This document shows positions 12,141 to 45,212 of a stretch of 64,000 bases of DNA, one piece after another. Source of the stretch: an uncultured Candidatus Saccharibacteria bacterium. GTDB taxonomy: Bacteria > Patescibacteriota > Minisyncoccia > Phycocordibacterales > UBA12088. The notes beneath the pieces were generated by a model that saw only the letters and a list, made by a program, of their open reading frames with translations, made no database searches and was not told the origin of the DNA. How positions within the stretch are numbered: the first letter of the stretch is position 1; every line of letters starts with the position of its first letter. The position numbers and the translations under genes were made by a program. The stretch lies in NCBI GenBank assembly GCA_964411375.1, contig CAYPKR010000002.1, positions 129,960-193,959 on the forward strand. Reading direction: 5' to 3'.

Positions 12141-12150
12141 CCAGTACAAA

Positions 12151-13961: not shown

Positions 13962-14039
13962 TCATCTAACCAGAACCCACCAGTATTAACCGTTTTTCGG
14001 CAAGATTCGGCAGTAAACGGCAATGATTCGAGCAAAATA

Positions 14040-14070: not shown

Positions 14071-14175
14071 TTGAGGAAAAAGGAATGTGGGTAACTCAAG
14101 CTTAGCAGCTGCAAGAAAAGAGCATATGGTGTGTCTGGTACCGAACGTCGAATTCGAACCGCTTTTATCAACTAA

Positions 14176-16992: not shown

Positions 16993-18309
16993 TTATTGAT
17001 TGAGTGCGGCACGAGTTTGTGGGCCAACATTTCCCACTTGCTCAAGACCATGTGCAGCCTGGAATTTTTTGACTGCGGCTTCGGTGAGTGATCCGAAATA
17101 TCCAGTTGCATCTCCCGAGAAGAAGCCGATCGATTTAAGGACGCTCTGAAGCTGTTTGACCGCATCACTGGTCATTCCAATATGCAGTTCGCTCGTGAAT
17201 TTGTAGCCTGAAGCACTTCCTCCTCCAGAAAGCGCGGCTGATACATTGGCGATCACGGTCTGGTCAGCGCCGAATGATTGAAGAAGTGAAAGGATTGCTT
17301 GCACTTGTGTGTTCGTGAGTCCAGAAGAATGTGAGTTTGGATAAAAATAATTTGTTGCGGGAGGAAGATTTGGCGCAACCGGTGTTGAAGTTGATTGCAC
17401 GAGAATCGTTGCTGATGCGTTGCCGATGTGATTGTACGGATCGGTTACCAAAATCGTCAATGTGTGTGAACCCGCGTCGCGATTAAGTGGCGTCCACGAA
17501 AAGTTACCGCTCGCGTCAATGTTGGAATTTGCAACACTACTTCCGTTTACCGAATCGTTCACGTAATACGATGAACTTGAGAATCCGTTTGCAACGATAC
17601 TGAATGTAAATGGCGTGCCGACCATGACCGAAGTACTTGTTGCGAGATTGGTGAGCGATACGTATGGCTGTCCACTTACTGTAATGACTGCAGTTGTTGT
17701 CATATTTTGTCCGAGTGAATCAGTGGCAGAAATAGTGAGCGTGTGTGTTCCGATGTCTGCATATTTCGGCGTCCAAGAGAAGTAGCCGGAAGCGTCCATG
17801 TTTGCACTCGTGACTGAAGTGCCACTGAAGGAATCAGAAAGCGTTAACACTTGATTGATAAATCCAACTGCAGAAACGGAAAAGCTAACGGAAGAACCTG
17901 CAGAAACTGCCTGATTGGTGAGCGAGAAGATGCCGAGGGATGCAGGAACTTTAACGGTGAGTGTGGTCATTCCGCTAATCGGATTTCCACCCGAATCTGC
18001 AGAACGGAGAGTCAGCATGTGTGTTCCGACGTCATTTCCATTTGGCGTCCATGAAAAATTTCCATTCGAATCGATGTTGGCGTTCGACACACTGCTTCCG
18101 CTAAACGAATCACTGATTGTATACACTGGGTTTGCACCACCGGCGCCTGAAGCGACAAACGTGACCGTGGAACCCGCTGAAATAATCGAACCTGGGGTCG
18201 GAGATGAGACCGACACGATATTTGCGAGCGCCGATACTGGTGCGACAAAAAGTACAATCGCCGAGATAGCGAGGAGGGCGCGGCGAATACTAAGGACGAC
18301 TGATTGCAT
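16993..18309 (-). CDS. Secreted protein with three Ig-like (putative-Ig/He_PIG-type) repeats and a C-terminal peptidoglycan-binding domain
   Basis: Signal peptide. Three repeats of about 80 aa each contain S..V.NANIDSNGNFSWTP....G.HTLT. The C-terminus MTSDAVKQLQSVLKSIGFF...VKKFQAAHGLEQVGNVGPQTRAAL is PG_binding_1-like. Confidence 0.7.
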   Translation of the reverse strand: MQSVVLSIRRALLAISAIVLFVAPVSALANIVSVSSPTPGSIISAGSTVTFVASGAGGANPVYTISDSFSGSSVSNANIDSNGNFSWTPNGNDVGTHMLTLRSADSGGNPISGMTTLTVKVPASLGIFSLTNQAVSAGSSVSFSVSAVGFINQVLTLSDSFSGTSVTSANMDASGYFSWTPKYADIGTHTLTISATDSLGQNMTTTAVITVSGQPYVSLTNLATSTSVMVGTPFTFSIVANGFSSSSYYVNDSVNGSSVANSNIDASGNFSWTPLNRDAGSHTLTILVTDPYNHIGNASATILVQSTSTPVAPNLPPATNYFYPNSHSSGLTNTQVQAILSLLQSFGADQTVIANVSAALSGGGSASGYKFTSELHIGMTSDAVKQLQSVLKSIGFFSGDATGYFGSLTEAAVKKFQAAHGLEQVGNVGPQTRAALNQ

Positions 18310-29313: not shown

Positions 29314-29979
29314 CTACCACTCGATTGGTTTCTCGCCATTCTCTTCAAGATACTTGTTTGCCTGACTAAAATGATGGTTGCCAAAAAATGCATTTCCCGC
29401 GAGTGGAGACGGATGTGCTGATGTCAGCACCAAATGTTTTTCAAAATCAATCACACTCCCCTTTTGCTTGGCGTAATTTCCCCACAGCATAAAAACCAAA
29501 TGTTCTCGTTCATCGTTTAACGCTTTGATCGCCGCGTTGGTAAATTCTTCCCATCCTTTTTTCTGATGTGAACCAGCCGCTCCAGCGCGCACGGTCAAAG
29601 TAGCGTTGAGAAGAAAAACACCTTGAGTCGCCCAACGAGTTAGGTCACCATCGTGAGAGACCGGATGTCCAAGATCGCTTTCGATTTCCTTAAAAATATT
29701 TTGGAGCGAGGGCGGATTTCGAACTCCTTCGTGAACGGCAAAACAAAGTCCGTTTGCCTGGCGCTCTCCGTGATATGGATCTTGTCCGAGAATCACAACT
29801 TTTACTTGATCAAAGGGCGTTAAATCAAATGCTCGGAAAATATCCTTGGGCGGCGGATATACCTTTGTTTTTTTATATTCTTCTTTTACGAAATCAGAAA
29901 GTTCTTTGAAATAGGGCTTTTCAAACTCTGCTTCGAGATGTTTCTTCCAGGATTCTTCAATTCGGACGGTCATAGGCAC
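29314..29979 (-). CDS. ung: Uracil-DNA glycosylase (family 1)
   Basis: VVILGQDPYHGERQANGLCFAV (water-activating loop), LLNATLTV, TSAHPSPLA. Confidence 0.9.
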   Translation of the reverse strand: MPMTVRIEESWKKHLEAEFEKPYFKELSDFVKEEYKKTKVYPPPKDIFRAFDLTPFDQVKVVILGQDPYHGERQANGLCFAVHEGVRNPPSLQNIFKEIESDLGHPVSHDGDLTRWATQGVFLLNATLTVRAGAAGSHQKKGWEEFTNAAIKALNDEREHLVFMLWGNYAKQKGSVIDFEKHLVLTSAHPSPLAGNAFFGNHHFSQANKYLEENGEKPIEW

Positions 29980-31093: not shown

Positions 31094-31714
31094 TTATTTA
31101 TTCTTTTTCCGTTCGCGTACGTAATGTACGAGTGGTGGAATAAATGAGACGATGATAATGACAAGGATAATTGGAAACAGAAATCGCTCTGCATCCGGAA
31201 CCTGTTTTCCTAATATGTATCCAAGATACGTGACTCCTCCGCCCCAAACAATCGCGCCGAGAACGTTGTAGGTAATAAAATCTCGATAGGGCATTTTTGC
31301 CGCGCCGGCAGCAATCGGAAGAAAAGTGCGGATGATAGGAAGAAATCTACCGAGCAAAATCGCTTGCTTTCCGTGCTTTTCAAAAAATGCTTCGGCTTTT
31401 TCCAAATGCGCTTTTTTAAAGATACGCGAATCGCTTTCTTTGAAGAGCTGACTCATATAGGTGCCGAAACCATATCCAATAATGTTGCCGAGAACTGCTG
31501 CCGAGATAATAAGTGGAATCAATATTCCTATTTGCAAAAATCCTTGTGAGGCAAGAAAGCCGGCAGTGAAAAGCAAACTATCTCCAGGGAAAAAGAATCC
31601 GAAAAAGAGTCCTGTTTCTGCGAACACAACAAAAAAGAGTCCGGAGTAGCCGGCGATATGAATGAGGTGCTCGGCATTGATGTGCGAGAGCGAATCGAAC
31701 AGGACTTCAATCAT
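31094..31714 (-). CDS. DedA-family membrane protein
   Basis: The ORF-track N-terminal extension is junk-like. The real start is MIEVLFDSL... at 31714, followed by DedA motifs (FFPGDSLLF, LGRFLPIIRTF). Confidence 0.7.
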   Translation of the reverse strand: MIEVLFDSLSHINAEHLIHIAGYSGLFFVVFAETGLFFGFFFPGDSLLFTAGFLASQGFLQIGILIPLIISAAVLGNIIGYGFGTYMSQLFKESDSRIFKKAHLEKAEAFFEKHGKQAILLGRFLPIIRTFLPIAAGAAKMPYRDFITYNVLGAIVWGGGVTYLGYILGKQVPDAERFLFPIILVIIIVSFIPPLVHYVRERKKNK

Positions 31715-31808
31715 AGTGGCAGTGTAGCATAGGCAAAACTGATTCGTATAAAAAGAGAAAGGGCCGTCAGTAAACTGACGGCCCTTGGTGCGCCGAAGCG
31801 CGGTAGAA

Positions 31809-32069
31809 CTAGTGAACAAGGCCTGCGTTGACACGATCGTTGCGGATCTTCCAGACCTTTTCCGGCTCGACGACCTGGCCCGTCTCGAGTCTCCATTTTC
31901 CTGGCTGACCGGGTGCAGGCGAAACCATGAAGGACTCGCCTGGTTGGGCGCCGTACAGAACGGCGTAGGGTGTGTACCCCTGGCGTTCTTGCCGTTCGTA
32001 CTGAGCCTGGAGCGCTCGCTCATGCCAGGTCATGAGCCAGCGAACAACTGCGTAGAACCATGTGACCAT
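31809..32069 (-). CDS. Hypothetical small protein (86 aa)
   Basis: Strong SD (AAGGGAGA) 7 nt upstream of the ATG, and protein-like composition. GC-rich, lying between the GT2 gene and dedA. Confidence 0.45.
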   Translation of the reverse strand: MVTWFYAVVRWLMTWHERALQAQYERQERQGYTPYAVLYGAQPGESFMVSPAPGQPGKWRLETGQVVEPEKVWKIRNDRVNAGLVH

Positions 32070-32127: not shown

Positions 32128-33468
32128 TCAAGAGCTGACGGGGCGATCTTCGTAGACTACCCAAGCGGTTTTCTTCGCCGTGTTAGTACCTCCAGCATCC
32201 GCACGCGAACCTCCCCACTTCCCAACTAGATGTTGAGTGAGGAGAGCCCAGAAGCAGATAAACTGGAAGAGCAGCATTACGAACGGGAAGATCGGGAGTA
32301 CCCACAAACTTCTCGGATATTTCCAGAGATGTGGGAACTGTCGGACAATTGTGGTCAGAATCATACCGAATACAGCGAGTATAAGCGCTTGCCACAGCGG
32401 CGTGCCCCCGTGACCAAGTAAATACGTGAGCGGCCAGTGCACGGCAACAATATATACCGTAGAGAGCGTGACCAAAATGCTTGTCCAGTACACGAAGAAT
32501 GCGACCGGGAAACGGATAAGCCATGGCGACCGTATCGTAATCCCCTGAAAGGTCCGGCACCACCGCGCCCACATACCGCAGGTATCGACAAGATTGTCGG
32601 GTGCAGTGGTCGTAACACACGCGTCCCAAACAAGAACAGTCCGGTACCCTGCTTGGAGTACAAATCCAGTGATCCGCCGATCGTCGCCTGCAATAGCGGG
32701 TCGGCGCATCAGACCAAAGTAGCTGAACGAGTCATTGACGAGCTCATCCATACGATGCTCGACGAGCTTCGTACGGACTGCATACATTCGTCCCGGTAGG
32801 CACGCGACCTGACCGAAGAGACTGCATGCTGCCATTGATGAGTTGAGCCTGGCGTCTTCGAGCCAGAAGCTAATTTTCTGGATCCAGGTCTTCGGATCGT
32901 GTACGAGCTGCGAAGTTGTTGTCCCTCCAATACGAGGGTCGGAGAACGGCGCGAGAAGTTTGAGTACGACATCCTTATTTCTCGGAATGGTATCCGAGTC
33001 AAGAAAGATGAGCAGCTCCTCGAGCCTTCCGCGCTTGCGTGCTTCCCGAAGAAGCTCCCGCAAGTTCCATTTCTTGTGACGAGCATTCGTAACGAGAACG
33101 ACATTTGCGTATCTTTTCGCAATCTCGGTCTCGAGCGCCACTTTAGCTGGATTCTTATCGAAGCCATCGATGATGGCAATGAAGAAGTGCCGGGTTGTTC
33201 CGTATTCGAGTGACTCTTTTACCTTTCGGAGAGACTCCTCAAGGATTTTAAGATTCTCGTCGTAGATCGTGACAACAATCGTTACTGCCTTTTTATCCAG
33301 AGGGTATTTTTGAATCCACCCCCTACTCCACAAAAAGTAGAAAATACCCGCAAGAGCCATGAGAGGAAATTGTCGAGCCGAAACGAACATGACGTAGATC
33401 TCGAACACATACCATCGGCCTGTATGGATTGTGTCCAAGAGTTGAGACACGAAGTGGATCATTGCCAC
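32128..33468 (-). CDS. Processive family-2 glycosyltransferase (hyaluronan/chitin/cellulose-synthase-like)
   Basis: 446 aa. A GT-A domain with DSD is followed by GDDRRITGF (G(D/E)DR.LT-type motif), a WARW (Q..RW-like) motif and C-terminal TM helices. Confidence 0.75.
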   Translation of the reverse strand: MAMIHFVSQLLDTIHTGRWYVFEIYVMFVSARQFPLMALAGIFYFLWSRGWIQKYPLDKKAVTIVVTIYDENLKILEESLRKVKESLEYGTTRHFFIAIIDGFDKNPAKVALETEIAKRYANVVLVTNARHKKWNLRELLREARKRGRLEELLIFLDSDTIPRNKDVVLKLLAPFSDPRIGGTTTSQLVHDPKTWIQKISFWLEDARLNSSMAACSLFGQVACLPGRMYAVRTKLVEHRMDELVNDSFSYFGLMRRPAIAGDDRRITGFVLQAGYRTVLVWDACVTTTAPDNLVDTCGMWARWCRTFQGITIRSPWLIRFPVAFFVYWTSILVTLSTVYIVAVHWPLTYLLGHGGTPLWQALILAVFGMILTTIVRQFPHLWKYPRSLWVLPIFPFVMLLFQFICFWALLTQHLVGKWGGSRADAGGTNTAKKTAWVVYEDRPVSS

Positions 33469-33535: not shown

Positions 33536-35035
33536 TTATTGTCCCCAGTAGCCTCCCCAGTTGAAGCGGAGACCGGTATTGATGCTTTCATCCCTACCGT
33601 TTGAATATCGGTCGGGACCATCGATGTACTGGGTAACCCTGCCGCCCACGAAGGCACAAGAATTGCCGAATGCTGCGAAACCGGGTTTACCGAGGCAGTA
33701 GGTCAATTCAACTCCCACTGCGCCGTCGTTGTCCCAATATCGCTCGGGATTCGTCGAGAGAGAGCCCTGGACGTAGAAGTCCAGACCCACGGTGTCAGTG
33801 TCGGTAAGCCACATGAGACTCATGTTGATCCCCTGCGAAAGACGCAAGAAACCAACCGTTTCCTTTTGCCCATACGGCTTTCCGGTGACACCACTTATTT
33901 CGTTATTCGACGTGTCGCCAAACGTTCCGCTGATGTTTCCGGAAATCGTCCACGGGTAGCTGAATGTTCCCCGCGGCATGCCGCTTGCACCGAAGGTTGC
34001 GATCTCCGCCACCGGCTCGGGTGTTTGAAGCCCGTACGATGCACGGAAATCGTCGATCAGTTTGCGGAACGCATCCCACTCATTTTCGGGAATGCCCCAG
34101 AAGATCGGCTTGTCGTTGGTTGCCTTTCCCGTTGGAACATTTTCGAAGAAGAAGTTGACGTTCGTGACATGCGTGAATCGAGTCTTGAGAGACTCGAGCA
34201 TGTCGCGGAACCAGTCGATCTTGTCAACGCCGCAGAGATTGGTCGTCGAGACTTCCGCCACCCAGATCGGGAGATCAGTAATCTTTACGATTGCATCATA
34301 TGCGGGACCAAATTCATCCGCGAAACTTTTCGGTTGCATGTGCGACGGATCGAGGCCGCACCGGTTGTAGGTCGAGATCGAGACCGATGTCACGAACTCG
34401 TCACCAGGATAGAGCGACTGAAAATCACTCGTTCCCTTGCCGCGTGCGCTTGATCGATTGTAGTTGAGGTCGACGCCGACGATTTTGCCGCTGGCAGACT
34501 CTCGAAGCAGCGTTACCATATGCTGCCATGCCGCGATGAAATCCTCCGGATGATTGCCCGGATAATACACGCCGCATGAATACCAATCGCCGTTGAACTC
34601 ATTACACGGACGAACAGTGATGTCTTGGTCCAGATCTTTGACCGCCTGGCCGAACGTGCGGAACGCATCGTCAAAGCCGCCGTCTTTGATTTTGGCGAGA
34701 ACACCATCCTCGACCGGAAATTTTATGACAACGATTTTTTTCGTCGCTGGATTGAACTTTCCGTACGGCAGTGCATTGACCGAGCCGGCGGTGTAGTACA
34801 CCACCACACAGTCATTGATGCCGAGCGGGTTCGCGATCGAGTAGTACTGCGCCGCACCTTGTGCAGACGCGAGGCAAAACTTGATGTCGCGTGTCGGTGC
34901 CGTTTGAGTAACTGCCGCTTGCGAAGCTGCCACATTCGGCAACGACGTGGTTGCTTGGGGAGAGATTTTCTCCGCTCCTGCACAAGCACTCACGAGGAGC
35001 ACCAGTGCTAGTCCTATTATTCTGTAAAGGTGCAT
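33536..35035 (-). CDS. GH26-like glycoside hydrolase lipoprotein with an extra Gly/aromatic-rich C-terminal domain
   Basis: Lipobox LLVSAC. RPCNEFNG (R...E.N acid/base context) and WVAEVST (nucleophile Glu context). A C-terminal segment of about 190 aa ends in ...FNWGGYWGQ. A perfect 10-bp-stem hairpin lies downstream (33488-33510). Confidence 0.55.
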   Translation of the reverse strand: MHLYRIIGLALVLLVSACAGAEKISPQATTSLPNVAASQAAVTQTAPTRDIKFCLASAQGAAQYYSIANPLGINDCVVVYYTAGSVNALPYGKFNPATKKIVVIKFPVEDGVLAKIKDGGFDDAFRTFGQAVKDLDQDITVRPCNEFNGDWYSCGVYYPGNHPEDFIAAWQHMVTLLRESASGKIVGVDLNYNRSSARGKGTSDFQSLYPGDEFVTSVSISTYNRCGLDPSHMQPKSFADEFGPAYDAIVKITDLPIWVAEVSTTNLCGVDKIDWFRDMLESLKTRFTHVTNVNFFFENVPTGKATNDKPIFWGIPENEWDAFRKLIDDFRASYGLQTPEPVAEIATFGASGMPRGTFSYPWTISGNISGTFGDTSNNEISGVTGKPYGQKETVGFLRLSQGINMSLMWLTDTDTVGLDFYVQGSLSTNPERYWDNDGAVGVELTYCLGKPGFAAFGNSCAFVGGRVTQYIDGPDRYSNGRDESINTGLRFNWGGYWGQ

Positions 35036-35194
35036 TGTCTTCTCCCGAGGCCAAAGGCCCAGCTGGGGTGAAAACGAAAAGGCCTGGAGACTCCAGTCCT
35101 TTGCCTTTCAGAATATCCCTTAAATTAAGAGTTTTGTCAAGATACAATATCGGTATTTTTTGTTGTGAAATATGGCAATTTTGGCCTCTGTCTC

Positions 35195-35228
35195 GAAAAG
35201 AAATAGAGCGTCTGGGGGACGCTCTATA
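35195..35228 (-). terminator. Intrinsic terminator downstream of the second GH26-like gene
   Basis: 9-bp stem TAGAGCGTC/GACGCTCTA with loop TGGGG, followed on the minus strand by TTTCTTTTCG. Confidence 0.6.
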
Positions 35229-35267: not shown

Positions 35268-36377
35268 TTACTCGCATTTTACAAGGATGTTTTTGTTCGG
35301 GTCTTTATAAGTCGCGTTCAGTTCGGCGCGAAATTCGTTGTTGATTTTGCAGAACCCCGCTACCCGATCGCCGTAAATTCCCCAATCGATCGGCACATCA
35401 TTCGACGCTCCGCCGATTTTCACCTTTTCAAGAAAGATGGTGAGTTGATCGACTCTCGGGAATCGCTCCTCGATGTCCCGAAACATGCCCCGGAACCATT
35501 CGATCCGATCGATTGCGCACTTAGGAGGATCAGTGAGCGCACTCGTATTCGTCTCCCCTACCCCGATTGGAATTCGAGGATCAATCGAGGCAGCGACTGC
35601 CTCGTATGCGGCGCCAAACTGCGTTTCAAATGATGGTGCTGTAACATACCGTTCGGCCGTGCCGCAGCGATTATACGCATCAATCGTCACCCGATCGACG
35701 ATTGCGTTGCCCGGATAGAGCTCAGCAAAATCTTTTTCGATCGCTCCCTTCGGTCCATAACGATTGACCGAAAAATCGAATGCGGCCAGATCGCCTGCAG
35801 CCACTTTCAGAATATTCGCTACATGGAGCCATGCCGCGGTATAGTCCTTCGGATTGTTGCCGGGATAATATGCTTGCCACGGATATCCATTACCATTCGC
35901 CTCGTACATATGACGTATGGTGACGCCGCGGCCATCGTCGACAATCATTTTTCCAATAGCAGATAAATCTGCATCGAATCTGCCGCCAAGGATTTCTTTC
36001 AGAACTCCGGGGCATTTAATTTTGTCAACCGGCATCTCACCATGAGGTCCCGCACCGCAACCTTTCATTGGGAAGAATTTGAGCGCCAGGATGATGTTGG
36101 TTTGACGCGGATATGCGGTGAAATCTCCGGTCTCGATCTTCCCTACCGTTGGATACAAGAGCGCGTGCTCATAGGCGCCGAGAGGGAGCGCACGTTTGTA
36201 GAAATACTCCGCATCGCGGGGAGATGAAGTGCCGATACTGATCGGACGCGGCACTGTGGCACCTACATTTTTGGGATGTAGTGCAGGCACGCTGTCGAGT
36301 TTTGACCCAAGAGAGGGCAGACACGCTGTCAGAATTCCGAAAATACCTACGAAAAGCAGTTTTCTGGTAAGGTGCAT
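35268..36377 (-). CDS. GH26-like glycoside hydrolase lipoprotein (paralog of 33536..35035)
   Basis: Start MHLTRKLLFVGIFGILTAC (lipobox) with an AAAGGA SD. IRHMYEANGNGYPW and PIGVGETNTS motifs. Shares DWFR/EWFR and YPGN.P.D..AAW blocks with its paralog. Confidence 0.55.
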   Translation of the reverse strand: MHLTRKLLFVGIFGILTACLPSLGSKLDSVPALHPKNVGATVPRPISIGTSSPRDAEYFYKRALPLGAYEHALLYPTVGKIETGDFTAYPRQTNIILALKFFPMKGCGAGPHGEMPVDKIKCPGVLKEILGGRFDADLSAIGKMIVDDGRGVTIRHMYEANGNGYPWQAYYPGNNPKDYTAAWLHVANILKVAAGDLAAFDFSVNRYGPKGAIEKDFAELYPGNAIVDRVTIDAYNRCGTAERYVTAPSFETQFGAAYEAVAASIDPRIPIGVGETNTSALTDPPKCAIDRIEWFRGMFRDIEERFPRVDQLTIFLEKVKIGGASNDVPIDWGIYGDRVAGFCKINNEFRAELNATYKDPNKNILVKCE

Positions 36378-36482
36378 TTCATTCCTTTCTGGGCACAAAG
36401 CCCGAGAGGAGAAAAGCGGCATAAGCGCAGCTTTTATCTCAGCGAAATATCCCTTTAATTTTGTGCGTTGTCAATACTCCTA

Positions 36483-39400
36483 TTATTCTGCAGGAGTAGT
36501 GCTTGCTTCTGGAGCCGGATCTGGTTCTTCGGCTGAAGGTGTTGAAGTTGAAGTGGTAGTCGTCACATCCGGAGTAACAGATTCAGTAGTCGTAGCTTCT
36601 TTTGGTGCAGGTTCATGTATCGGAGCTGATGCTCCCCCGATATTTGCATTTCGAAGCAGTGTTTCAAGCTTTTCTTTAGTCAAGCAAACTCCGTCAACAC
36701 AAATCTGCTTTCCTGCTGATACTTCATCGTCTGCTTCAATTTTTTTCGCATGCAAATTATCAACGACGATTGTTTTTGCCAATACCGTATCGAATGTGGC
36801 TTTCAAAGTATCGCCGACTGCCGATACGCCCGAACCAATGAGTGAAGTGATTTGTTCTTGTTGATGTTTGAACGCGCCAAGAAGTACGACTGCGAGATCT
36901 TCGTAACGAACACCGCGCGGCGCGCCATCCTCTTCGCGGAAAATTAATCTTCCATCAACCGCCCCAACTTCTTCTGCAACCAATCCGATGCGATCTTCTT
37001 CGGTGCCGTTGTATTTGAAATGAACGGGACGAAGTTTTTCGGCAAGCGTTGCTGCTTCTTCGGGCGTGAAATCTTGAATGTCATGTTTGAACCTCGCCGA
37101 TGAGACGGTACAGGTTTGTGCACCAGAGTTTACCTGCACTTCTTTGTCAGAAGACAAACAAAGCGCGCTACCGCTCGTTGATTCTGCCGTAAGCCCATCA
37201 AATCCAACCGTTCCGGTGACTGAAAGAAAACGCCATGGACTGGTAGATGCGATGCCGAATTTTCCGCCAGAAGTGAGCGCGGCTTTTGATGTTTGGTTGG
37301 TAATGAAGCGAAGATCGTGATTGGTCATCGTTCCTACAAACGCTTGTGTATCTTCAACGCGCATATCGATAACGGCGCCATTCGTAGTATCCGTAAATCG
37401 AAATCCTGGGCTGTTTGCACTCGCGCCGTTAATCATGCGGTTCATAGTGGTCGTGCCGATTCCAATACTTCCGGTTGAATCAATCGTCAAAATATCTCCA
37501 ACCGACTGACTATACGTCGATTTGATTCTGAAATAATCTGCGGTCTGACTTGTTGCGCCAGTTACGGTGAGCACTGATGCTGCGGCATCAGTGCCGACCA
37601 CCTGGAGTTTTGATGTTGGTGTCGTGGTTCCAACCCCAACATTCCCTGCTGTGTATACGAGACTTGAAGAAGTTGCAATCCATTTATCATTGAAGATTGA
37701 ATCCGCGACAATGTTGTAGCCGGTCTTCATGAGCGTATCTTCGGCGATAATGAAGCGATCGTTATTGCCGCCATTCGAATACGGCTGATCGACGCCCCAC
37801 AACTGACCGTTCACTGACACATAGGTCGCTTTTTCAACTCGAATACCAACCGATGGCGCGGGTGTTCCGGTTCCATCATCGTCAACGCCGGGAATTTCAG
37901 AAAGATTAGTGATCACAACCGGCGCGACTTTTGCAGTTGGCGAGCCAATGATTGCGATTCCGGCATACGGCGTTTCTGTGCCGCCGCCGTCGTTCGCACC
38001 ATCGCGGCGAAGCAAAAGTCCGTCAAACGTAATAGTAGTCGTTCCTGTTGCCGAAATGCGTACGCCGTGACGATCGTTTCGGTCGGTTGAAAAACCGCTA
38101 ATTTGGAATCCGCCGTTGCTTGATGAGCCGTCAATGTAGAGTCCTTCGAGTGTATTGAATACTGCGCGGCTGTTTGAGAGCTTCGTTTCTCCCATCGACG
38201 TGAAATAAAATCCGCGCTGTGCGCCGCCGACAACCAGAATGTCGTTCAGATATGAGTCAGTGAGCGCGGTCGCGCGAACGCCGTGGAGTGCCGGACTATA
38301 AATACTCAAGTGATCGACCGTAAATCCGCGTGGATTCCCCGTTCCCGCGCCTTGCGCAGTATGGAACGCATCTCCTGAGGTTTGCGAGATATCAGTATCT
38401 TCAACCTTCCAGTCACGGACCAATCCTTCAAAATAAATCCCGTCGATTGCCGTGCCATATGAGTTACCGTCGATTGAAATATTCCGAATGCGTCCGCCGT
38501 CGTTTGACGCTGCTTCTCCTGAAATGCTTTTATCGCGCACATGAATGATTGCGGATCCGACGAAACTGGTTGTCGGCTTGATGGAACTCCTCGGCGTTGA
38601 TGCATAGTACCAACGCGGCGCGTAGGTTCCCTGAAGCGTGATTGGTTTATCGAGATTGAGTGGCTGGCTGATTCGGAACACGCCCATCGGAAAGAGAACG
38701 GTTCCTCCAGGAGAACATGCATTGATCGCCGCCGTGATCGCTGCATAATTGTCGCGTGAATTATCACCGACGGCGCCATATGCTTCGACGTTGCAGACAA
38801 CGCCACCGGTATCCAGAAAAAGACCGGTTGTTGTGCCAAACGAGGCATATTTAAGTACGCTCAAATTATGTTCAATCGTTGTTGTTCCTGAACTTCCACC
38901 AAAGAGTGCCGTCCCCGCAACAGAGAGAATTGCACTCGGCGTTGTTGTACCAATACCAACTTTTCCAGTCAGTCGATATACATCCGAACCACTTCCCGTC
39001 CAATTTCCCGAAGCTCCTGAACTTAGGATTGATCCATTCCAATACAAATCAGAATTGTTGTTATACAAACGATTAGATGTTTGCGAAGGTGTGCCGGAAA
39101 GAAGAAGTAATGAACTTGCGAACGTCGTTTCACCGTTCATTGTTGCAGATTCCAAAATATTATCTTCGTTTGCTGGGATAAATGCCGTGACCACCCCACC
39201 ACGAACCGCGGAGAGAATATTTGCAACAAATGATTTTGTTTCTTCGATTTTTTTATCTACGAGAGATTCGGAAACCCCTTCAGTATAAATATTATTTATG
39301 ACCGACGCTGGAGTTTTTTCGGTCGGAACGTACACCGTGACGGTTTTTGTTGGTGTCGGTACGGAAGTAGATTCCGTCGGCGGATTGTTTGCGACCGGTG

Positions 39401-39662
39401 TATTGATAGGTGCGGCTGGAGGAGAATTTGTTTCAGTGACTGGCGGAGTATTTTGCGGCGAAGATACTTCCGACGTTGGAGTCGGGGTTTCGACTTTTGG
39501 CGCACAAAATCCTAAAGGCTTTAAAACAAATCCAAACACATAACACATGAAGCCAGGTGAAGAATCCTTTGCAGCTACTGGATGCGGAAAAAGAAATAGC
39601 GTAAGTACCAGACACACGGCTGCAACAGACAAAAGTCCAGGACTATGTGGCCCCTTATTCAT
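36483..39662 (-). CDS. Large secreted beta-helix protein with C-terminal intramolecular-chaperone (peptidase S74) domain; tailspike/depolymerase-like
   Basis: Signal peptide and a Pro/Thr-rich linker. Pectate-lyase-like right-handed beta-helix repeats. SSARFKHDIQDFTPEEAATLAEKLRPVHFKY matches the S74 autoproteolytic chaperone motif. A Thr/Pro-rich tail of about 150 aa follows. Confidence 0.75.
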   Translation of the reverse strand: MNKGPHSPGLLSVAAVCLVLTLFLFPHPVAAKDSSPGFMCYVFGFVLKPLGFCAPKVETPTPTSEVSSPQNTPPVTETNSPPAAPINTPVANNPPTESTSVPTPTKTVTVYVPTEKTPASVINNIYTEGVSESLVDKKIEETKSFVANILSAVRGGVVTAFIPANEDNILESATMNGETTFASSLLLLSGTPSQTSNRLYNNNSDLYWNGSILSSGASGNWTGSGSDVYRLTGKVGIGTTTPSAILSVAGTALFGGSSGTTTIEHNLSVLKYASFGTTTGLFLDTGGVVCNVEAYGAVGDNSRDNYAAITAAINACSPGGTVLFPMGVFRISQPLNLDKPITLQGTYAPRWYYASTPRSSIKPTTSFVGSAIIHVRDKSISGEAASNDGGRIRNISIDGNSYGTAIDGIYFEGLVRDWKVEDTDISQTSGDAFHTAQGAGTGNPRGFTVDHLSIYSPALHGVRATALTDSYLNDILVVGGAQRGFYFTSMGETKLSNSRAVFNTLEGLYIDGSSSNGGFQISGFSTDRNDRHGVRISATGTTTITFDGLLLRRDGANDGGGTETPYAGIAIIGSPTAKVAPVVITNLSEIPGVDDDGTGTPAPSVGIRVEKATYVSVNGQLWGVDQPYSNGGNNDRFIIAEDTLMKTGYNIVADSIFNDKWIATSSSLVYTAGNVGVGTTTPTSKLQVVGTDAAASVLTVTGATSQTADYFRIKSTYSQSVGDILTIDSTGSIGIGTTTMNRMINGASANSPGFRFTDTTNGAVIDMRVEDTQAFVGTMTNHDLRFITNQTSKAALTSGGKFGIASTSPWRFLSVTGTVGFDGLTAESTSGSALCLSSDKEVQVNSGAQTCTVSSARFKHDIQDFTPEEAATLAEKLRPVHFKYNGTEEDRIGLVAEEVGAVDGRLIFREEDGAPRGVRYEDLAVVLLGAFKHQQEQITSLIGSGVSAVGDTLKATFDTVLAKTIVVDNLHAKKIEADDEVSAGKQICVDGVCLTKEKLETLLRNANIGGASAPIHEPAPKEATTTESVTPDVTTTTSTSTPSAEEPDPAPEASTTPAE

Positions 39663-39752: not shown

Positions 39753-40145
39753 ATGCTGATCGACAGACAACTCGAACGGAGAGCGCCTATGCGAAGAAAA
39801 ATGATCCGATCGATCGAGAAATTGGTTGTCCATATGGACATTTCCTCCGCCTTTGCATTCGCGTACTTTTTCTTTGTCGGAACGACGGTATGGTTGTATT
39901 TGCTACGGGTCAGCCCTAACCTTCCTCATTCTTCTCATTCGATCCAAGGAATAATGGAAAGAATCTACGTAGGAACTCCACTCACCTATCTGTATCCAAT
40001 AGTGATTGGATCTATGGTTGCGATCTTGGTCTGTATTATTACGCTTGCAGTGATCTTTATTTTTCAGACGACACCTATTCCTCCACCACCGAAAATGCCG
40101 AAACTGCCGCCCACCAATTTTAGGGCGGCAGTTTTTTATTGTTGA
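39753..40145 (+). CDS. Hypothetical membrane protein
   Basis: 130 aa, 2 TM, Pro-rich C-terminus. Confidence 0.3.
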   Translation: MLIDRQLERRAPMRRKMIRSIEKLVVHMDISSAFAFAYFFFVGTTVWLYLLRVSPNLPHSSHSIQGIMERIYVGTPLTYLYPIVIGSMVAILVCIITLAVIFIFQTTPIPPPPKMPKLPPTNFRAAVFYC

Positions 40146-42053
40146 TTACGAGAGTTCTTTAAGGAGATCAGTGAGTTTGATCGTTGCAACACCTACCACT
40201 GAATCGCCGCCGCCATAATATACGTACACAACTCCTTTTCGGATGATTGCGCCGCACGGGAAAACCACATGCGGAATTTGTCCTTCATGTTCGTATTGTT
40301 CAGTTGGCTCAAACAAGGGAGAAACGGTGCGAGAAAGGACGGTTGTCGGATCTTTGAGATCAAGGAGCACCGCACCAACACGATACGTCTTATTTTTTGA
40401 AACGCCGTGATAGAGAAGAATCCATCCGTCTTTAGTTTTGAGCGGTGGCGCAGCAATACCCACTTTCTGACTGTCCCACATGCCAGGGCGAGGGGCGAGA
40501 AGCTGGATGCAACGAGATGCTTTATCGATTTCAAAATTAAGCGAATCAAGAAAGTCTGCGCACACATGTGTTCCAAGGCGATGGAGAATCATATACTTCC
40601 CTTTTACTTTTTCGGGAAGTAAACAGGTGTCTTTGTCGTCGAGTCCAGTTGGGGTGACGATAACCGGCTTTGACCAATTTTGCCATTGTTGTTTTTCAAA
40701 ATCGGCCACTGAAATTGAGGTCGCGGCAACAACTGGCGGACGAACACCATCGTACGCGGTGTAACACATATATATACGATCTCCGATTTGCGTGAGCCGC
40801 GGGTCCTCACATCCTGAATTTCCATTAGGATCTCCCTTTTTCATTTCAAAATCTTCGCGCGGAACATATATCGGATCGGTGCCACGTGTCTTGATCGAGA
40901 GTCCATCTTTCGATGCGGCATAACCAATGGTTGAAGTATTATCTTCAGACATTGCGCGATATAGAATGTGCACCACTCCACCAAGATCAATTGCGGCAGG
41001 ATTAAATACCGCACGGGACTCCCATCCGTGACTCCGTATCGGACGAAGTATCGGATTTTTTGGATACCGCTTCATATTTTTGAAGCGTGTTTTCAAATTG
41101 AGATTTGCAATGAGGCTCGAAAGATTTACGGTTGCTCTTGCACACGTCGTGTCGGTTGCACCGTAATAAATATCGAGATCATTTCGATTTACCAAGGCAC
41201 CAGATGGAAAAATAGTATTCGGCACTTGTCCGTATTTTTCATAGACTTCTTCAGGAACAAGAAGCGGTCCCGGAGTGCGTCCGATTATTTTTTGTGGATT
41301 TTTCAGATCAAGAAGAAGCGCTTCAATTCCCCAGACTTTTTCGTTCGAGAAATAATTTTGGGCATGCGAATAAATAAGGAGCCAACCTTGCTTAGTTTTG
41401 ATCGGCGGTACACCAACTTCCGCATGATCACCATCACCTCGGCGTGGATCGATGATATGTTTTCCTTCCGTTTTTTCCCACTCTCTCCAAAACTCCGGCG
41501 ACCAGAAGTCTTCGATCTTTTTAGCTGATGCGAATGCGATTTTGGAGGGCGGCCTATCAGTATCTTTTGCAAAAATCACCATATACTTGCCGTCCACTTT
41601 TTCAGGGAAAAGCGCCATCGCCTTTGCATTAAACGGCGTCACCAAATGTTTTTCGGTGACTTTTTTCAAATCCTTGGTTATTGCAACTGCTACTTTAATA
41701 TTGTCTGGTCCATACGGAAAACCACCAAGCGCCGTATAAAAAATATAATAGGTGTCGCCAATCTTCGTGACGCGAGGATCTTCACAACCAAAACGCTCCC
41801 ATGGCTGTTCGGGAATAATGAATTGCTCGCGATGATCAAAATGTTTGCCGTCATCCGATACCGCATGTCCAATAGTGGAAAGGGCCAAATGCACTCCTTC
41901 GTATTGATCTGATGCAGACATTGCGCGATAAAACGCATGGATCTTTTTTCCAACCTTAACTGGTGACCAATTAAATGTCGCGAGCGCTTCCCACGGATGT
42001 TCTCCGAGCGGCCGGATCAAAGGATTGTGCGAATCTCGTTTAATGATAAACAT
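40146..42053 (-). CDS. Tandem GH130-family glycoside phosphorylase/hydrolase (two GH130 beta-propeller domains)
   Basis: 635 aa. Two copies of the GH130 pattern (.FNP....G..H..YRA.......IG.A.S.DG..F; GCEDPR.T.IGD.YY..YTA). Confidence 0.8.
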   Translation of the reverse strand: MFIIKRDSHNPLIRPLGEHPWEALATFNWSPVKVGKKIHAFYRAMSASDQYEGVHLALSTIGHAVSDDGKHFDHREQFIIPEQPWERFGCEDPRVTKIGDTYYIFYTALGGFPYGPDNIKVAVAITKDLKKVTEKHLVTPFNAKAMALFPEKVDGKYMVIFAKDTDRPPSKIAFASAKKIEDFWSPEFWREWEKTEGKHIIDPRRGDGDHAEVGVPPIKTKQGWLLIYSHAQNYFSNEKVWGIEALLLDLKNPQKIIGRTPGPLLVPEEVYEKYGQVPNTIFPSGALVNRNDLDIYYGATDTTCARATVNLSSLIANLNLKTRFKNMKRYPKNPILRPIRSHGWESRAVFNPAAIDLGGVVHILYRAMSEDNTSTIGYAASKDGLSIKTRGTDPIYVPREDFEMKKGDPNGNSGCEDPRLTQIGDRIYMCYTAYDGVRPPVVAATSISVADFEKQQWQNWSKPVIVTPTGLDDKDTCLLPEKVKGKYMILHRLGTHVCADFLDSLNFEIDKASRCIQLLAPRPGMWDSQKVGIAAPPLKTKDGWILLYHGVSKNKTYRVGAVLLDLKDPTTVLSRTVSPLFEPTEQYEHEGQIPHVVFPCGAIIRKGVVYVYYGGGDSVVGVATIKLTDLLKELS

Positions 42054-42054
42054 A

Positions 42055-43878
42055 CTATTTTCTGACGGTTACTTTTTCAGGATGTAAGTGCACCACGCTA
42101 TCTTTCTTTACATTGTCGATAAATTCATCAAGTGGCGTATGCGCGACACACGTCACCATATCCGCTCCTCCATAATATATGTAGAGTTGATTTTTGATAA
42201 CGGCAGCACCGCATGGATAAATGACGCCCCATTTGTGTCCCTGATTTTCGTATTCCGCGTCTGGAACGGCGATCGGGAGACGCGCACGGTACAAGACTTT
42301 TGTTGGATCATTTGAATCCAAAATCATCGCACCCATTTTGTAGCGTCCCGGATCACGATCATCAACACCCTGATACACCACGAGCCATCCTGCTTCAGTT
42401 TTGAGAGGTGGCGGACCGACACCAAGTTTTCTACTGTCCCAAAAACTTGGGCGTGGTTTTATTTTTGCGTCCCCTCGAAGCCAACGCTGTTTTTTGAATT
42501 CAAGATCTGGGACAAAATCGATGAGCATGTTCGGAAAAATGCGATGAAAAATAACATACTTGCCGTTTACTTTTTCTGGAAAAAGTGCTGCGTTCTTATT
42601 CACTTGATCAGGGCGTGAAATGAGAAGTGGCTTCTTCCACTTCCAGTTCCCCGCCTTAAAATTATCGAAAGAAATTGACGTAATGGCGACGCGCGGCGCA
42701 GACCATCCGTCATAGGCAACGTAAGTCATGTAGACGGTGTCATCAATCAAAGTGATTCGAGGATCTTCACAACCACCCCATCCGCCACCACCCGACGTAA
42801 ATTCATCGTTACCTTCGTATGGCAAGCCATGCACCATTTCGGTCGGCGTGCGAGATGAATAAATGGGATGAGTTAATCGTTCAGAAAAATTGAGCCCGTC
42901 GTCCGACGTTGCATAGCCAACAGACGACATATTGTTCCAACCGATTGCGCGATACAAAAGATGTACTTTTTCACCGTCAAAAAGTGCCGCGGGATTGAAT
43001 GTTGCGACTGATTCCCAATGACTCGGCTTTGGCGAAAGTACTGGATTCACGTGATGCGCTTTCGTGAGTCCGGAAATACCGATACTCATATGACCATGGA
43101 AAGGTTGCGGAATTTTTACCGTATGCAGTTCCTTATTTTGATCGAGCCAGTAGAGGCGAATTTCTTCACCAAGTCCGATCGCTCCAAACGGCGTTGCCAC
43201 TCCCGCAAACTCTTCTTCGAAGACGAGCGATTCACCGCTCCAGGCAATCTCTGCCGGATTATCATGACGGAATAAAAATCCTTCGATGCGAAGTAGGGTG
43301 CCGGAAGCAGTTGCTTTTGAACGATCAACAAGAAGCAAAATGCCCGCGTGCGTATTCACCGCTCCCCACAAACGACCAGATGGAATCCCGAGTTTTGATT
43401 TGCTCCATTTACGAAGGTCTTTGCTGTAGGCAACATACATCTCACTCCCACCAAGATAGAGCACATGTTTGTCTTTAAATCTGAATCCATCAACCCATGC
43501 GATATCAGGATTTCCCGACATAATTTTTCCCTTGCCGCGACTCGAAACAAGCGTCTTTGAGATAGCGCCAACAGTGCTAATTGTTTTTCCTTTTCGTCTC
43601 GAGTAGATAAGAAATTCTCCTTCGTCTACCGGATATGCCGAAGCGCGCACGATCATGTCGACCGCTTCTGTCGATCCACGCTCGGTGAGCATCTTCAGTT
43701 TTTTCCGCGGACGATCAAAACGTACCCCGTCATTACTTTTTTGTATGAAAATTTCCGGCTCGCCTTTTGCGTTTACCTCACGGTATACAAGAAAAAGACT
43801 TCGTCCATGAAAACCGACACCCAGGGGTTCGTGTCCTGTTTCACCTTTTTTTTGCCGCTTTCCCCTGCCTATTGGCAT
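42055..43878 (-). CDS. GH130-family protein with an N-terminal beta-propeller-like extension
   Basis: C-terminal half: TFNPAALFDGEKVHLLYRAIG...GGCEDPRITLIDDTVYMTYVAYDG. Confidence 0.75.
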   Translation of the reverse strand: MPIGRGKRQKKGETGHEPLGVGFHGRSLFLVYREVNAKGEPEIFIQKSNDGVRFDRPRKKLKMLTERGSTEAVDMIVRASAYPVDEGEFLIYSRRKGKTISTVGAISKTLVSSRGKGKIMSGNPDIAWVDGFRFKDKHVLYLGGSEMYVAYSKDLRKWSKSKLGIPSGRLWGAVNTHAGILLLVDRSKATASGTLLRIEGFLFRHDNPAEIAWSGESLVFEEEFAGVATPFGAIGLGEEIRLYWLDQNKELHTVKIPQPFHGHMSIGISGLTKAHHVNPVLSPKPSHWESVATFNPAALFDGEKVHLLYRAIGWNNMSSVGYATSDDGLNFSERLTHPIYSSRTPTEMVHGLPYEGNDEFTSGGGGWGGCEDPRITLIDDTVYMTYVAYDGWSAPRVAITSISFDNFKAGNWKWKKPLLISRPDQVNKNAALFPEKVNGKYVIFHRIFPNMLIDFVPDLEFKKQRWLRGDAKIKPRPSFWDSRKLGVGPPPLKTEAGWLVVYQGVDDRDPGRYKMGAMILDSNDPTKVLYRARLPIAVPDAEYENQGHKWGVIYPCGAAVIKNQLYIYYGGADMVTCVAHTPLDEFIDNVKKDSVVHLHPEKVTVRK

Positions 43879-43891
43879 ACTTCTTTCAAAA

Positions 43892-44260
43892 TTACCTCTT
43901 CTTCACCTTTGTCGGAGCTCTGCCGTATTTATCGGCAAGACGCGTGATGTCATTTTCATCAAACGCACCAAATGCGATTTCCAAAAATGCCGCTCCGTCT
44001 TTTCCCGCTTTAATTCGATGTTGTTTTTTCTTCGGAATCAAAAATTCGTCTCCCGCTCGTGCACGTGTCACCTTCTCGCCAATCGTCACTGTTGGATGTC
44101 CCGAAATGATCCGCCAAAATTCGCTTCGATCGTTATGATATTGCAGTGACAACTCACCGCCCGGCGCTATGGTAATTATTTTTACTGTCGATTGTTCGTT
44201 TGCCGTAAATTGGCGAAAAGCGCCCCACGGACGCTTCACTTCTTTGATGCGCATATTCAA
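43892..44260 (-). CDS. Cupin-domain protein (mannose-6-phosphate isomerase-type cupin_2)
   Basis: TIAPGGELSLQYHNDRSEFWRIISG is a cupin motif. Confidence 0.7.
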   Translation of the reverse strand: MNMRIKEVKRPWGAFRQFTANEQSTVKIITIAPGGELSLQYHNDRSEFWRIISGHPTVTIGEKVTRARAGDEFLIPKKKQHRIKAGKDGAAFLEIAFGAFDENDITRLADKYGRAPTKVKKR

Positions 44261-44284
44261 ATTATAGCACTCTTCTCGGAGTAA

Positions 44285-45040
44285 TTAGGCAACCTCACCT
44301 GTGAGTATTCGCCGAATCAAATCTCTCGTTTCAGCGGGGCTCCGAACGGCTACTGTTTTGATGCCCGTTTTAAGAACTGCCGCATCGTTTCCCCCTTCAA
44401 AGAGTGCGTCACCGATATACTCCGCGTCCCAAACGGTGTATCCGAGCTGATCCAGGATTTTTTGGAGCCCGTAGGCTTTATCAATGCCCGCCTTGGTTAT
44501 ATCGATGGTCGTCGTACCGCCGATGTGCACTTCAAAATTTGGAAGTCGTTCGCGTAATTCTTCCTGAATCGGAATACGCTTCCTTCGGTCGGGATCCCAT
44601 TTCTCTTTTTCAAAGAGTGGAGCCTCTTGTCCAAGTGCCGAAAAAGTTATCTGCGTTCCACGATCTTCGATTTGTTCACCATAAATTTGAAGCGGCTGTT
44701 CAAACTTTGCCGCAATCAGAGATTCTTTAATTGCCTGAATTGCAGATTCCTTCTCTTCACTTGAAAGTGTTTCTTCGTAGATTTTTTCTGGATCGACATT
44801 TGCGTAGTGATAGAGTGCTGCTCCGCTCGTTGGAAGAAGATAGAGATTTTGTCGCTCATGATCTCCGCATGGTAAATGCATAATAAGTCGATCGTGGAGT
44901 TGCCCCATTGAGGCGCCACTCATCACGGCAACTTTTGTCTTCGCAAGCAATTGGCACACAAGCGAGGCAGTTTCTTCTTCGATTGGAAATCTGGATGGTG
45001 CAAGCGTTCCATCAAGGTCAAAAACGTACAATTTCTTCAT
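44285..45040 (-). CDS. HAD-IIB family phosphatase/mutase (phosphomannomutase- or mannosyl-phosphate-phosphatase-like)
   Basis: Start MKKLYVFDLDGTLAPS (DxDGT motif I). The size and the distal Asp motif are consistent with HAD-IIB. The ORF-track N-terminal extension was trimmed. Confidence 0.7.
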   Translation of the reverse strand: MKKLYVFDLDGTLAPSRFPIEEETASLVCQLLAKTKVAVMSGASMGQLHDRLIMHLPCGDHERQNLYLLPTSGAALYHYANVDPEKIYEETLSSEEKESAIQAIKESLIAAKFEQPLQIYGEQIEDRGTQITFSALGQEAPLFEKEKWDPDRRKRIPIQEELRERLPNFEVHIGGTTTIDITKAGIDKAYGLQKILDQLGYTVWDAEYIGDALFEGGNDAAVLKTGIKTVAVRSPAETRDLIRRILTGEVA

Positions 45041-45212
45041 GATAGAAATCAGTATATCACTTACTGAGGAGGGTTCAGGGCGGGTGGACAAATGCATCCT
45101 TCTGTGCTATACATACCGCATCAAAACGATAGGTCTTGCAACGGGAAAATAGGTTGAATTTTCTTCGGAGGACGCGATGTTTTGAAGAATTTATTCAATT
45201 TATCTTGCCGAA

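Follow-up and report, generated by a model that had tools for sequence, protein, structure and literature searches.

A putative tailspike-like, self-cleaving surface fibre of Patescibacteria encoded beside a GH26 glycanase and a processive glycosyltransferase

A 64,000-nucleotide stretch of contig CAYPKR010000002.1 from an uncultured Candidatus Saccharibacteria bacterium (hereafter the window, meaning the whole stretch) was analysed with respect to the open reading frame (ORF) at positions 36483-39662 of the minus strand. The initial annotation had described this ORF as encoding a tailspike-like surface protein of 1059 amino acids (aa), and its coordinates, ATG start and length were confirmed. 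A protein identical to the predicted product is present in public collections (P0001), where it is encoded on a 270-kb contig. From the N-terminus, the protein consists of a signal peptide, a Cys-loop, a Pro/Thr linker, a neck and stalk with capping-loop repeats, a right-handed beta-helix, a second stalk, an S74 chaperone/autoprotease domain and a 54-aa acidic disordered tail. We consider this molecular anatomy, together with the self-processing of the fibre, to be very probable. The features of the gene are as follows.

36483..39662 (-): whole ORF, putative tailspike-like self-cleaving surface fibre; 1059 aa plus stop, ATG start (ORF list)
39570..39662 (-): Sec-type signal peptide, residues 1-31; K3, hydrophobic core, VAA/KD junction, hydropathy segment at 5-32 (rule-based)
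39504..39545 (-): Cys-loop CYVFGFVLKPLGFC, residues 40-53, proposed cell-proximal anchoring element; family motif C-x3-G-[WF]-x-V-[RK]-P-x-G-[FW]-C
39288..39494 (-): Pro/Thr-rich linker, residues 57-125, 22% T and 22% P by composition; modelled as disordered (predicted local distance difference test, pLDDT, 30-38)
38811..39287 (-): proximal stalk, residues 126-284, with a helix, the neck motif and the first capping-loop repeat (motifs; alignment to 8ojn and 8ond)
37683..38810 (-): right-handed parallel beta-helix (PF12708), residues 285-660, putative glycan-binding or glycan-cleaving domain (Pfam, PHROG, AlphaFold, Foldseek, tblastn)
37104..37682 (-): distal stalk, residues 661-853, with three capping-loop repeats at 675, 733 and 802 (motifs; profile matches to fibre structures)
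36648..37103 (-): predicted complete S74 intramolecular chaperone/autoprotease domain of the long subtype, residues 854-1005 (Pfam, dyad, AlphaFold, Foldseek)
37086-37103 (-): codons containing the predicted catalytic Ser854 and Lys859 (SSARFK)
about 36648-36710 (-): extra helix and Cys hairpin ICVDGVCLTKEKLETLL
36486..36647 (-): acidic Thr/Pro/Ala/Glu-rich disordered tail, residues 1006-1059, 54 aa, net charge -8 (composition; pLDDT ~30)

The chaperone domain claimed in the initial annotation was recovered by the profile PF13884 (Peptidase_S74, 'chaperone of endosialidase'), which matched residues 854-902 with 31.2 bits against a cut-off of 22. The chaperone motif quoted there was found as S854-S-A-R-F-K859-H-D-I...L-R-P-V-H-F-K-Y, whose first part, S854-S-A-R-F-K859, fits the S-x4-K motif of the SDxxxK type. 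A homolog search of 5.8 billion proteins yielded 96 relatives, approximately 50 of which had the same two-domain architecture; 46 of these were aligned, and the conservation counts given below refer to this alignment. Ser854 and Lys859, the dyad that the initial annotation had proposed to check, were invariant in all 46 homologs and also in a 21-sequence C-terminal alignment. Beyond the subclade of the window protein, the chaperone region is only 20-28% identical to it.

With its 58 positions, the PF13884 model spans only the first part of the chaperone domain, which in known examples is approximately 110-155 aa long; the S74 domain of Bd3182, a fibre of Bdellovibrio bacteriovorus, spans S782 to residue 922 (PMC10769870). 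The family profile matched CIMCD-bearing structures over the whole domain, namely the phage fibres 8jov (1.7e-12) and 6f45 as well as MyRF 7dc3. The core of an AlphaFold model of residues 800-1010 had a pLDDT of 87-94, and in a Foldseek comparison of the chaperone model with the PDB the best match was the MyRF ICA domain (7dc3; E 1.5e-4, probability 1.0), accompanied by the T5 L-shaped fibre pb1 with its chaperone (4uw8; probability 0.97) and the endoNF CIMCD (3gw6; probability ~0.6). The assignment of the window protein to the S74 family is thus well supported by its sequence, its predicted catalytic residues and its modelled fold.

The C-terminal end of the protein was revised by these results. 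The initial annotation had assigned to it a tail of about 150 aa rich in Thr and Pro; residues 903-1005 are, however, the remainder of the chaperone domain and are not Thr/Pro-rich, and the low-complexity tail comprises 54 aa only. The longer tail is largely an artefact of the Pfam model, because that model ends soon after the start of the domain. Residues 903-1005 were modelled as a long helix (920-943), a second helix (947-962) and a two-Cys beta-hairpin with a short helix (985-1005), the last of which has the sequence KQICVDGVCLTKEKLETLL. Short and long chaperone subtypes both occur in the family, and the window protein belongs to the long one. The extreme C-terminus is the typical, not strictly defining, position of an S74 domain, and the tail that follows it here had been called unusual. 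Tails of 38-144 aa (median 82), all net acidic, are nevertheless carried by every one of the 46 family members, and many other patescibacterial S74 proteins have longer extensions. It had also been suggested that the tail is retained on the mature protein, but by the S74 mechanism it would depart with the cleaved chaperone. A C-terminal anchor, either a transmembrane (TM) helix or a sortase-type motif, was sought in the tail of the window protein and not found, nor was a hydrophobic anchor segment found in the tails of the 46 homologs. As a speculation, the tail may solubilise, or provide a spacer for, a chaperone that has to assemble outside the membrane once exported by Sec.

A post-chaperone module of the form C-x(2-8)-C-[VIL]-[TS]-x-x-[QEK]-[LF]-x-x-[LI]-L followed by low-complexity sequence was seen to recur in P0061, P0062, P0066, P0069, P0070, P0073, P0082 and P0087, and a looser form was recognised by eye in P0080, P0085, P0086 and P0094. 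This combination of Cys hairpin and tail is present in patescibacterial S74 proteins of quite different architecture, and some proteins with the module run on into DUF5011/Ig-like domains. The distant homolog P0068 has a TM helix at its end, after the chaperone, which is a MYRF-like topology not found in the window protein. MYRF continues past its ICA domain with a TM helix and further sequence, so that an S74-type domain need not stand at the extreme C-terminus. Unlike the window protein, MYRF is a eukaryotic transcription factor of the endoplasmic reticulum membrane that releases an N-terminal DNA-binding part and has no beta-helix enzyme domain.

The beta-helix proposed in the initial annotation was confirmed by PF12708 (rhamnogalacturonase A/epimerase-type pectate-lyase-like beta-helix), which matched residues 290-489 with 47.9 bits against a Pfam cut-off of 27, and residues 285-660 were modelled as a parallel beta-helix with a pLDDT of ~93. 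The top Foldseek matches of this domain were all polysaccharide enzymes or tailspikes, including the mannuronan epimerases AlgE4 and AlgE6, the Vibrio matrix-polysaccharide lyase RbmB, the Sf6 and CBA120 tailspikes, GH87, GH28 and GH55 enzymes and phi29 gp12; at 12-19% identity, these neighbours define the fold class and not the enzyme class. An assignment to a known enzyme class was attempted and rejected: sequence matches to GH28, GH55, AlgE and rhamnogalacturonase were confined to the N-terminal cap (residues 285-342), and neither the GH28 signatures (NTD, DD, GHG and RIK) nor the AlgE motif YG(F/I)DPH(D/E) was found within residues 285-660. Approximately 100 beta-helix positions are invariant across the patescibacterial family, and many of them are Asp, Glu, His, Arg or Lys, including D398, D417, D424, H460, R463, D469, D474, E492, K494, D511, D527, R528 and R552-D554. 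The conservation of these charged positions is an argument that the beta-helix holds an active site or a precise groove for binding and is more than a scaffold.

The same domain is related to proteins of phage tails. PHROG 11699, annotated as 'minor tail protein', matched residues 298-759 with an E-value of 1e-42, and a tblastn search matched 47 phage records, of which 43 were from Streptomyces phages, 3 from Curtobacterium phages and 1 from a Synechococcus phage. The best of these matches was 35% identical over 381 aligned columns (E 3e-43), and the matching phage genes adjoin genuine virion genes. The motifs TDRN, RRDG and RAVFN are common to the fibre beta-helix and gp10 of the Curtobacterium phage Eevee.

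Two stalks flank the beta-helix. The proximal stalk contains the neck motif NRLYNNNSDLYWNGS at residues 197-211 (NRLY...LYWNG) and the first capping-loop repeat VGIGTTTPSAILSV at residues 235-248. Four repeats of the form (V/I/F)G(I/V)(G/A)(T/S)(T/S)(T/S)P...L are present altogether, beginning at residues 235, 675, 733 and 802, and they align to the trimeric mosaic adhesive trimeric (MAT) fibres 8ojn, 8ond and 8oml of Bdellovibrio. The capping-loop consensus V-G-x-G-x-x-x-P-x-x-x-L and its link to S74 proteins have been described (PMC10769870). Profile matches of the distal stalk comprised these three Bdellovibrio structures, the phage fibres 8jov and 6f45, and phrog_1980 tail fiber; this stalk presumably forms an intertwined trimeric beta-helix. 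The neck motif is common to patescibacterial fibres with entirely different distal parts, and the fibres therefore constitute a mosaic family, as do the MAT fibres.

At the N-terminus, the signal peptide and the Pro/Thr linker expected from the initial annotation were both found. The former has a hydrophobic stretch at residues 10-26, and a similar signal-type N-terminus is present in 37 of the 46 homologs. It is directly followed by the 14-residue Cys-loop, which was seen in 34 of the 46 and matched no known family. In P0007 and P0008, a PG_binding_1 domain (PF01471) near the N-terminus takes the place of the Cys-loop. The loop may be an envelope-anchoring element. We infer that the protein is anchored at the cell through its N-terminus, with the beta-helix and the chaperone pointing away from the cell.

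Every named relative, and every one of the 12 genome loci, was from Patescibacteria. The closest relative, encoded by a metagenome-assembled genome of an uncultured Saccharibacteria bacterium (locus L001), is 69% identical and fully syntenic. NCBI annotates the relatives as 'tail fiber domain-containing protein'. The window itself is chromosomal in character, with genes for rpoC, rpoD, dnaG, an AddA-like helicase-nuclease, a cytochrome oxidase and a histidine kinase, and the GC content around the fibre gene is the same as that of its surroundings. Among approximately 25 annotated window ORFs, no phage structural gene was found within 20 kb of the fibre ORF, in agreement with the initial annotation, and no paralog of the fibre was found within the window. 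A scan of IMG/VR viral contigs with the family alignment found no relative; the scan was pattern-limited and is a weak negative. The suggestion that the protein is a domesticated phage component was thus borne out in part: the beta-helix shows kinship with phage tail proteins, and the gene lies in a cellular, secreted context and not in a prophage.

The fibre gene is followed by glycan-related genes on the same strand. The order fibre, GH26 and processive GT2, co-directional and with short gaps, was conserved in 14 of 14 informative patescibacterial loci (L001-L003, L005, L007-L010, L012, the partial L006 and the more distant L016-L019); L004 and L011 break off within the fibre gene and were excluded as uninformative. 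These loci span Saccharibacteria, Parcubacteria, Nomurabacteria and Paceibacteria. In L016-L019, each cassette lies in a different housekeeping neighbourhood, and the flanks are otherwise unrelated across the loci. The downstream neighbours in the window are as follows.

35268..36422 (-): 384-aa lipoprotein-like GH26 paralog with the catalytic domain only; lipobox LTAC, motifs YEANGNGYPW and GVGETN
33536..35035 (-): 499-aa lipoprotein with GH26 and a C-terminal beta-rich domain of ~150 aa (PDB sequence search); cassette member
32128..33468 (-): 446-aa membrane-embedded GT2 of the processive synthase type (Pfam PF13641, PF13632, PF00535); cassette member
31094..32023 (-): DedA/UptA-like membrane protein, in the window and the close relative L001 only

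Pfam and NCBIfam gave no match to the two downstream lipoproteins of the window. Their GH26 identity is based on a PDB sequence match and on Pfam matches to homologs: the closest structure to the 499-aa protein is Clostridium thermocellum Lic26A (2v3g; E 2e-20), with both catalytic Glu residues aligned, and PF02156 matches homologs of this protein directly. The 384-aa protein is homologous to the 499-aa protein and is conserved in L001. The GT2 has the motifs DSD, GDD and WARW. Hydropathy places three TM helices in its C-terminal part, and a weaker hydrophobic stretch near its N-terminus was read by eye. It matched the NodC model with an E-value of 3e-20, which is far below that model's cut-off, and hyaluronan synthase 7sp7 with an E-value of 4e-8. 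Identical promoter-like elements (TTGACA, 17 nucleotides, GATATT) lie upstream of both GH26 paralogs (36446-36474 and 35112-35140, minus strand), and a terminator-like hairpin with a 10-bp stem lies between the paralogs at 35203-35227; counts in the promoter and terminator scan were at chance level. Upstream of the fibre gene, 40146-45097 (minus strand) contains two tandem GH130 genes (635 and 607 aa), a small ORF and a phosphomannomutase/HAD-like gene. GH130 is a beta-mannoside phosphorylase family, and together with GH26 these genes look like a salvage route for beta-mannosides or beta-glycans; the linkage to GH130 and the phosphomannomutase-like gene was seen in the window and its closest relative L001 only.

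Several further observations were made around the cassette. The beta-rich C-terminal domain (~150 aa) of the 499-aa GH26 protein ends in ...RFNWGGYWGQ. Upstream of the fibre gene, a gap of 483 bp contains an ORF of 130 aa on the opposite strand (39753-40145, plus strand) with two hydrophobic segments and a PPPPKMPKLPP stretch, which may encode a small membrane protein or have arisen by chance. A gene of the uracil-DNA glycosylase family (29314-29979, minus strand) lies a few kb beyond the GT2 gene and occurs likewise in L001, L003, L012 and L017, which are from different lineages; this may be residual synteny. A 438-aa protein encoded at 16993-18309 (minus strand) combines several bacterial Ig-like domains with a PG_binding_1 domain at its C-terminus and is a putative wall-anchored surface protein; three similar PKD/PG_binding genes are found upstream of the fibre gene in locus L016. 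A component of aerobic respiration, subunit I of a cytochrome/quinol oxidase (COX1, E 1.5e-147), is encoded at 1226-3199 (minus strand) in this otherwise Saccharibacteria-looking genome. A stretch of low GC content at approximately 5954-15852 (0.37-0.41 compared with ~0.46) is probably an integrated mobile or defence island and contains the following features.

5954-9082 (-): KAP-family NTPase
9328-11313 (+): N6-methylase with a TaqI_C domain
14176-15792 (+): large serine recombinase, whose 3' end overlaps the tRNA-Asn gene
15778-15852 (-): tRNA-Asn

The protein was compared with known systems. Phage tailspikes that combine a beta-helix with an S74 domain at the C-terminus (phi29 gp12, 3suc; the K1F endosialidase CIMCD, 3gw6; T5 pb1, 4uw8) are trimeric, and their Ser-Lys dyad chaperone is auto-cleaved after folding. 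The window protein resembles them in that 3suc was among the matches of its beta-helix and 4uw8 and 3gw6 were among those of its chaperone, and many phage proteins pair a 'pectate lyase superfamily' domain with an 'intramolecular chaperone auto-processing' domain in the same manner. Unlike these tailspikes, the window protein is encoded on a chromosome and linked to GH26 and GT2 instead of tail genes; a signal peptide, Cys-loop and Pro/Thr linker replace the virion-attachment domain; and the chaperone is of the long subtype, with an extra helix, a Cys hairpin and the acidic disordered tail. The actinophage minor tail or tailspike proteins of PHROG 11699, such as Eevee gp10 and the tailspike of Streptomyces phage pSt2308, have a beta-helix homologous over approximately 360-380 residues at 29-35% identity. 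They are virion tail proteins encoded beside terminase, portal or capsid genes and have no signal peptide, whereas the window gene lies in a non-phage context, and Eevee gp10 (528 aa) showed no S74 region in its alignment with the window protein. To our knowledge, the substrates of these actinophage proteins are uncharacterised.

A closer cellular parallel is provided by the S74 subgroup of the MAT fibres of B. bacteriovorus. Bd3182 is a Sec-exported S74 fibre that self-cleaves at S782, and the S782A substitution blocks the cleavage (Caulton et al. 2024, PMC10769870). Like the MAT fibres, the window protein is cellular (non-phage) and has a signal peptide, capping-loop repeats and an S74 domain with an SDxxxK-type motif; the family profile matched the MAT structures 8ojn (1.2e-11) and 8ond (5e-12), and both groups are mosaic, with a common proximal module and variable distal parts. 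On the other hand, MAT fibres end at the S74 domain and have a conserved beta-rich N-terminal domain of ~130 aa right behind the signal peptide, without a large enzyme-like beta-helix, whereas the window protein has the Cys-loop and Pro/Thr linker at that position, a neck motif, a 375-aa tailspike beta-helix and a post-chaperone tail. The two also differ in phylum and in type of cell envelope. No GH26-GT2 cassette is reported for MAT genes.

For the placement of the gene, a different comparison is informative. The Vibrio cholerae VPS lyase RbmB (9ozl) and the Azotobacter vinelandii mannuronan C5-epimerase AlgE4 (2pyh) were the top structural neighbours of the beta-helix, and the genes of both enzymes lie together with, or close to, those that make the polymer on which the enzyme acts, an arrangement analogous to the fibre-GH26-GT2 cassette. 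They differ from the window protein in that they are only 13-18% identical to it and are not trimeric S74-processed fibres, and the AlgE motif is absent from the window protein.

On balance, the gene product is probably a cell-surface fibre with the build of a phage tailspike, which is exported by Sec, tethered at its N-terminus, trimeric and self-cleaving at Ser854, and which binds or cleaves a surface beta-glycan. In the mechanism that we propose, the fibre chain would be exported by Sec, and outside the membrane three C-terminal chaperone domains would come together as a template for the intertwined trimeric stalk and for the beta-helix. Lys859 would activate Ser854, which would then cut the chain, and a fragment of 206 aa comprising the chaperone and the tail would depart. 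A mature fibre of approximately 820 aa would stay, held at the cell by the N-terminal Cys-loop and linker with the beta-helix at the distal end. The beta-helix would bind, and probably cleave or modify, a beta-linked surface polysaccharide, most likely the product of the adjacent GT2, and the fibre would trim, release or anchor a glycan coat or holdfast made by the cell itself. A self-made glycan appears to be the simplest target because the gene is fixed beside a glycanase and a polymer-exporting synthase that acts only on the cell's own product, and we lean slightly towards it over a host glycan. The GH26-GT2 cassette, the strongest of the contextual evidence, points at least as much to a self-made glycan as to host attachment. 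The two need not exclude each other, as a self-made glycan with its fibre could itself be an attachment structure.

Several points weigh against this interpretation. The cleavage, trimerisation, localisation and substrate of the fibre are all properties that we infer, and the signal peptide is a rule-based call. The stalks, including residues 661-853, were of low confidence in the AlphaFold monomer models, as is expected for intertwined trimers. The beta-helix could be binding-only because no catalytic signature of a defined class (GH28 or AlgE) is present. The cassette genes may not form one transcript, given the promoter-like sites and the hairpin between them, and this reading does not account for the acidic tail. 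In addition, the homology to phage receptor-binding proteins and the mosaic architecture resembling the prey-recognition fibres of Bdellovibrio would suit a host-directed role equally well.

Such a role, in which the fibre is an adhesin or depolymerase that recognises and perhaps digests a host surface glycopolymer while GH26, GH130 and the phosphomannomutase-like gene product harvest the sugars, is a possible explanation that we consider rather unlikely. The relatives of the beta-helix in Streptomyces and Curtobacterium phages accord with it, as Actinobacteria are the hosts of cultivated Saccharibacteria; the phage database is, however, heavily biased towards actinophages, and the family spans lineages with unknown, probably non-actinobacterial hosts. 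The architecture and the capping-loop repeats parallel the prey-recognition fibres of Bdellovibrio, and the neck motif on fibres with different distal parts is the kind of mosaicism typical of recognition proteins. The two GH130 genes and the phosphomannomutase-like gene look like a catabolic route, yet they accompany the fibre gene in the window and its closest relative only, and the partner conserved throughout the phylum is a membrane-embedded processive GT2, which is able to act on its own polymer only.

The remaining explanations concern what the beta-helix does and whether the gene serves the cell at all. It is improbable that the fibre is a non-enzymatic structural element, the beta-helix of which would be a rigid scaffold or a lectin of the envelope, as in a spike associated with an S-layer or wall. 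Many tailspike-like proteins bind without cleaving, and the lack of GH28 and AlgE signatures and the low identity (12-19%) of the structural neighbours are compatible with such a fibre. The gene is nevertheless tightly linked to glycan enzymes, and the conservation of charged residues across the beta-helix is very high, with approximately 100 invariant positions at an overall identity of only 40-50%, part of which recur in the phage homologs. That the gene is a tail fibre left in the chromosome by a prophage, with no cellular function, is hardly credible. The PHROG tail-protein matches, the phage homologs of the beta-helix, the frequent combination of beta-helix and S74 among phage proteins and the recombinase/defence island at 6-16 kb would fit a remnant. 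This hypothesis was rejected, as the approximately 25 annotated window ORFs include no virion genes and the island, the sole mobile-looking region, is separated from the gene by over 20 kb. The protein carries a signal peptide, the same non-phage neighbours accompany its gene in 14 of 14 loci with different flanks, the GC content of the gene is that of its surroundings and the limited IMG/VR scan gave no viral relative; the conserved catalytic and beta-helix residues imply purifying selection. The self-cleaving surface fibre that acts on a beta-glycan is the reading that we prefer. It may be extended, as a doubtful conjecture, to a phylum-wide holdfast to host cells, in which GT2 would extrude a beta-glycan, GH26 would trim it and the S74-matured trimeric spike would organise or anchor the glycan, grip the host wall, or both. 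The beta-helix would then have been borrowed from phages of the same hosts, and the acidic tail would serve to fit S74 maturation to export by the Sec route across a monoderm envelope.

Beta-helix tailspikes with S74 chaperones and cellular S74 fibres (Bdellovibrio, 2024) are already known. As far as the searched literature shows, the new element is a phylum-wide patescibacterial family that combines a signal peptide and Cys-loop, a tailspike beta-helix, a long chaperone with an acidic tail and an invariant GH26-GT2 partnership; in that literature, no account was found of S74 or tail-fibre-like proteins in Saccharibacteria or other members of the Candidate Phyla Radiation (CPR). Nothing in the finding overturns current understanding, and if the fibre is only an enzyme that trims a self-made glycan, the finding is a modest one: a new family of enzymes that act on surface polysaccharides and depend on an intramolecular chaperone for maturation. 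Outside phages, S74 domains commonly carry C-terminal extensions, and the cellular phage-like S74 fibres described in Bdellovibrio in 2024 are extended here to a second, very different group of bacteria living on other cells. Little is settled about host recognition and attachment in Patescibacteria (CPR), for which type IV pili are the main known factor in the abstracts surveyed. The fixed partnership with a glycanase and a polymer synthase makes a three-gene unit that is open to heterologous expression, and the fibre family, conserved and secreted, is a candidate for a part in CPR surface-glycan or attachment biology that can be tested through its predictions of self-cleavage at Ser854, trimerisation and the binding or cleavage of a glycan.

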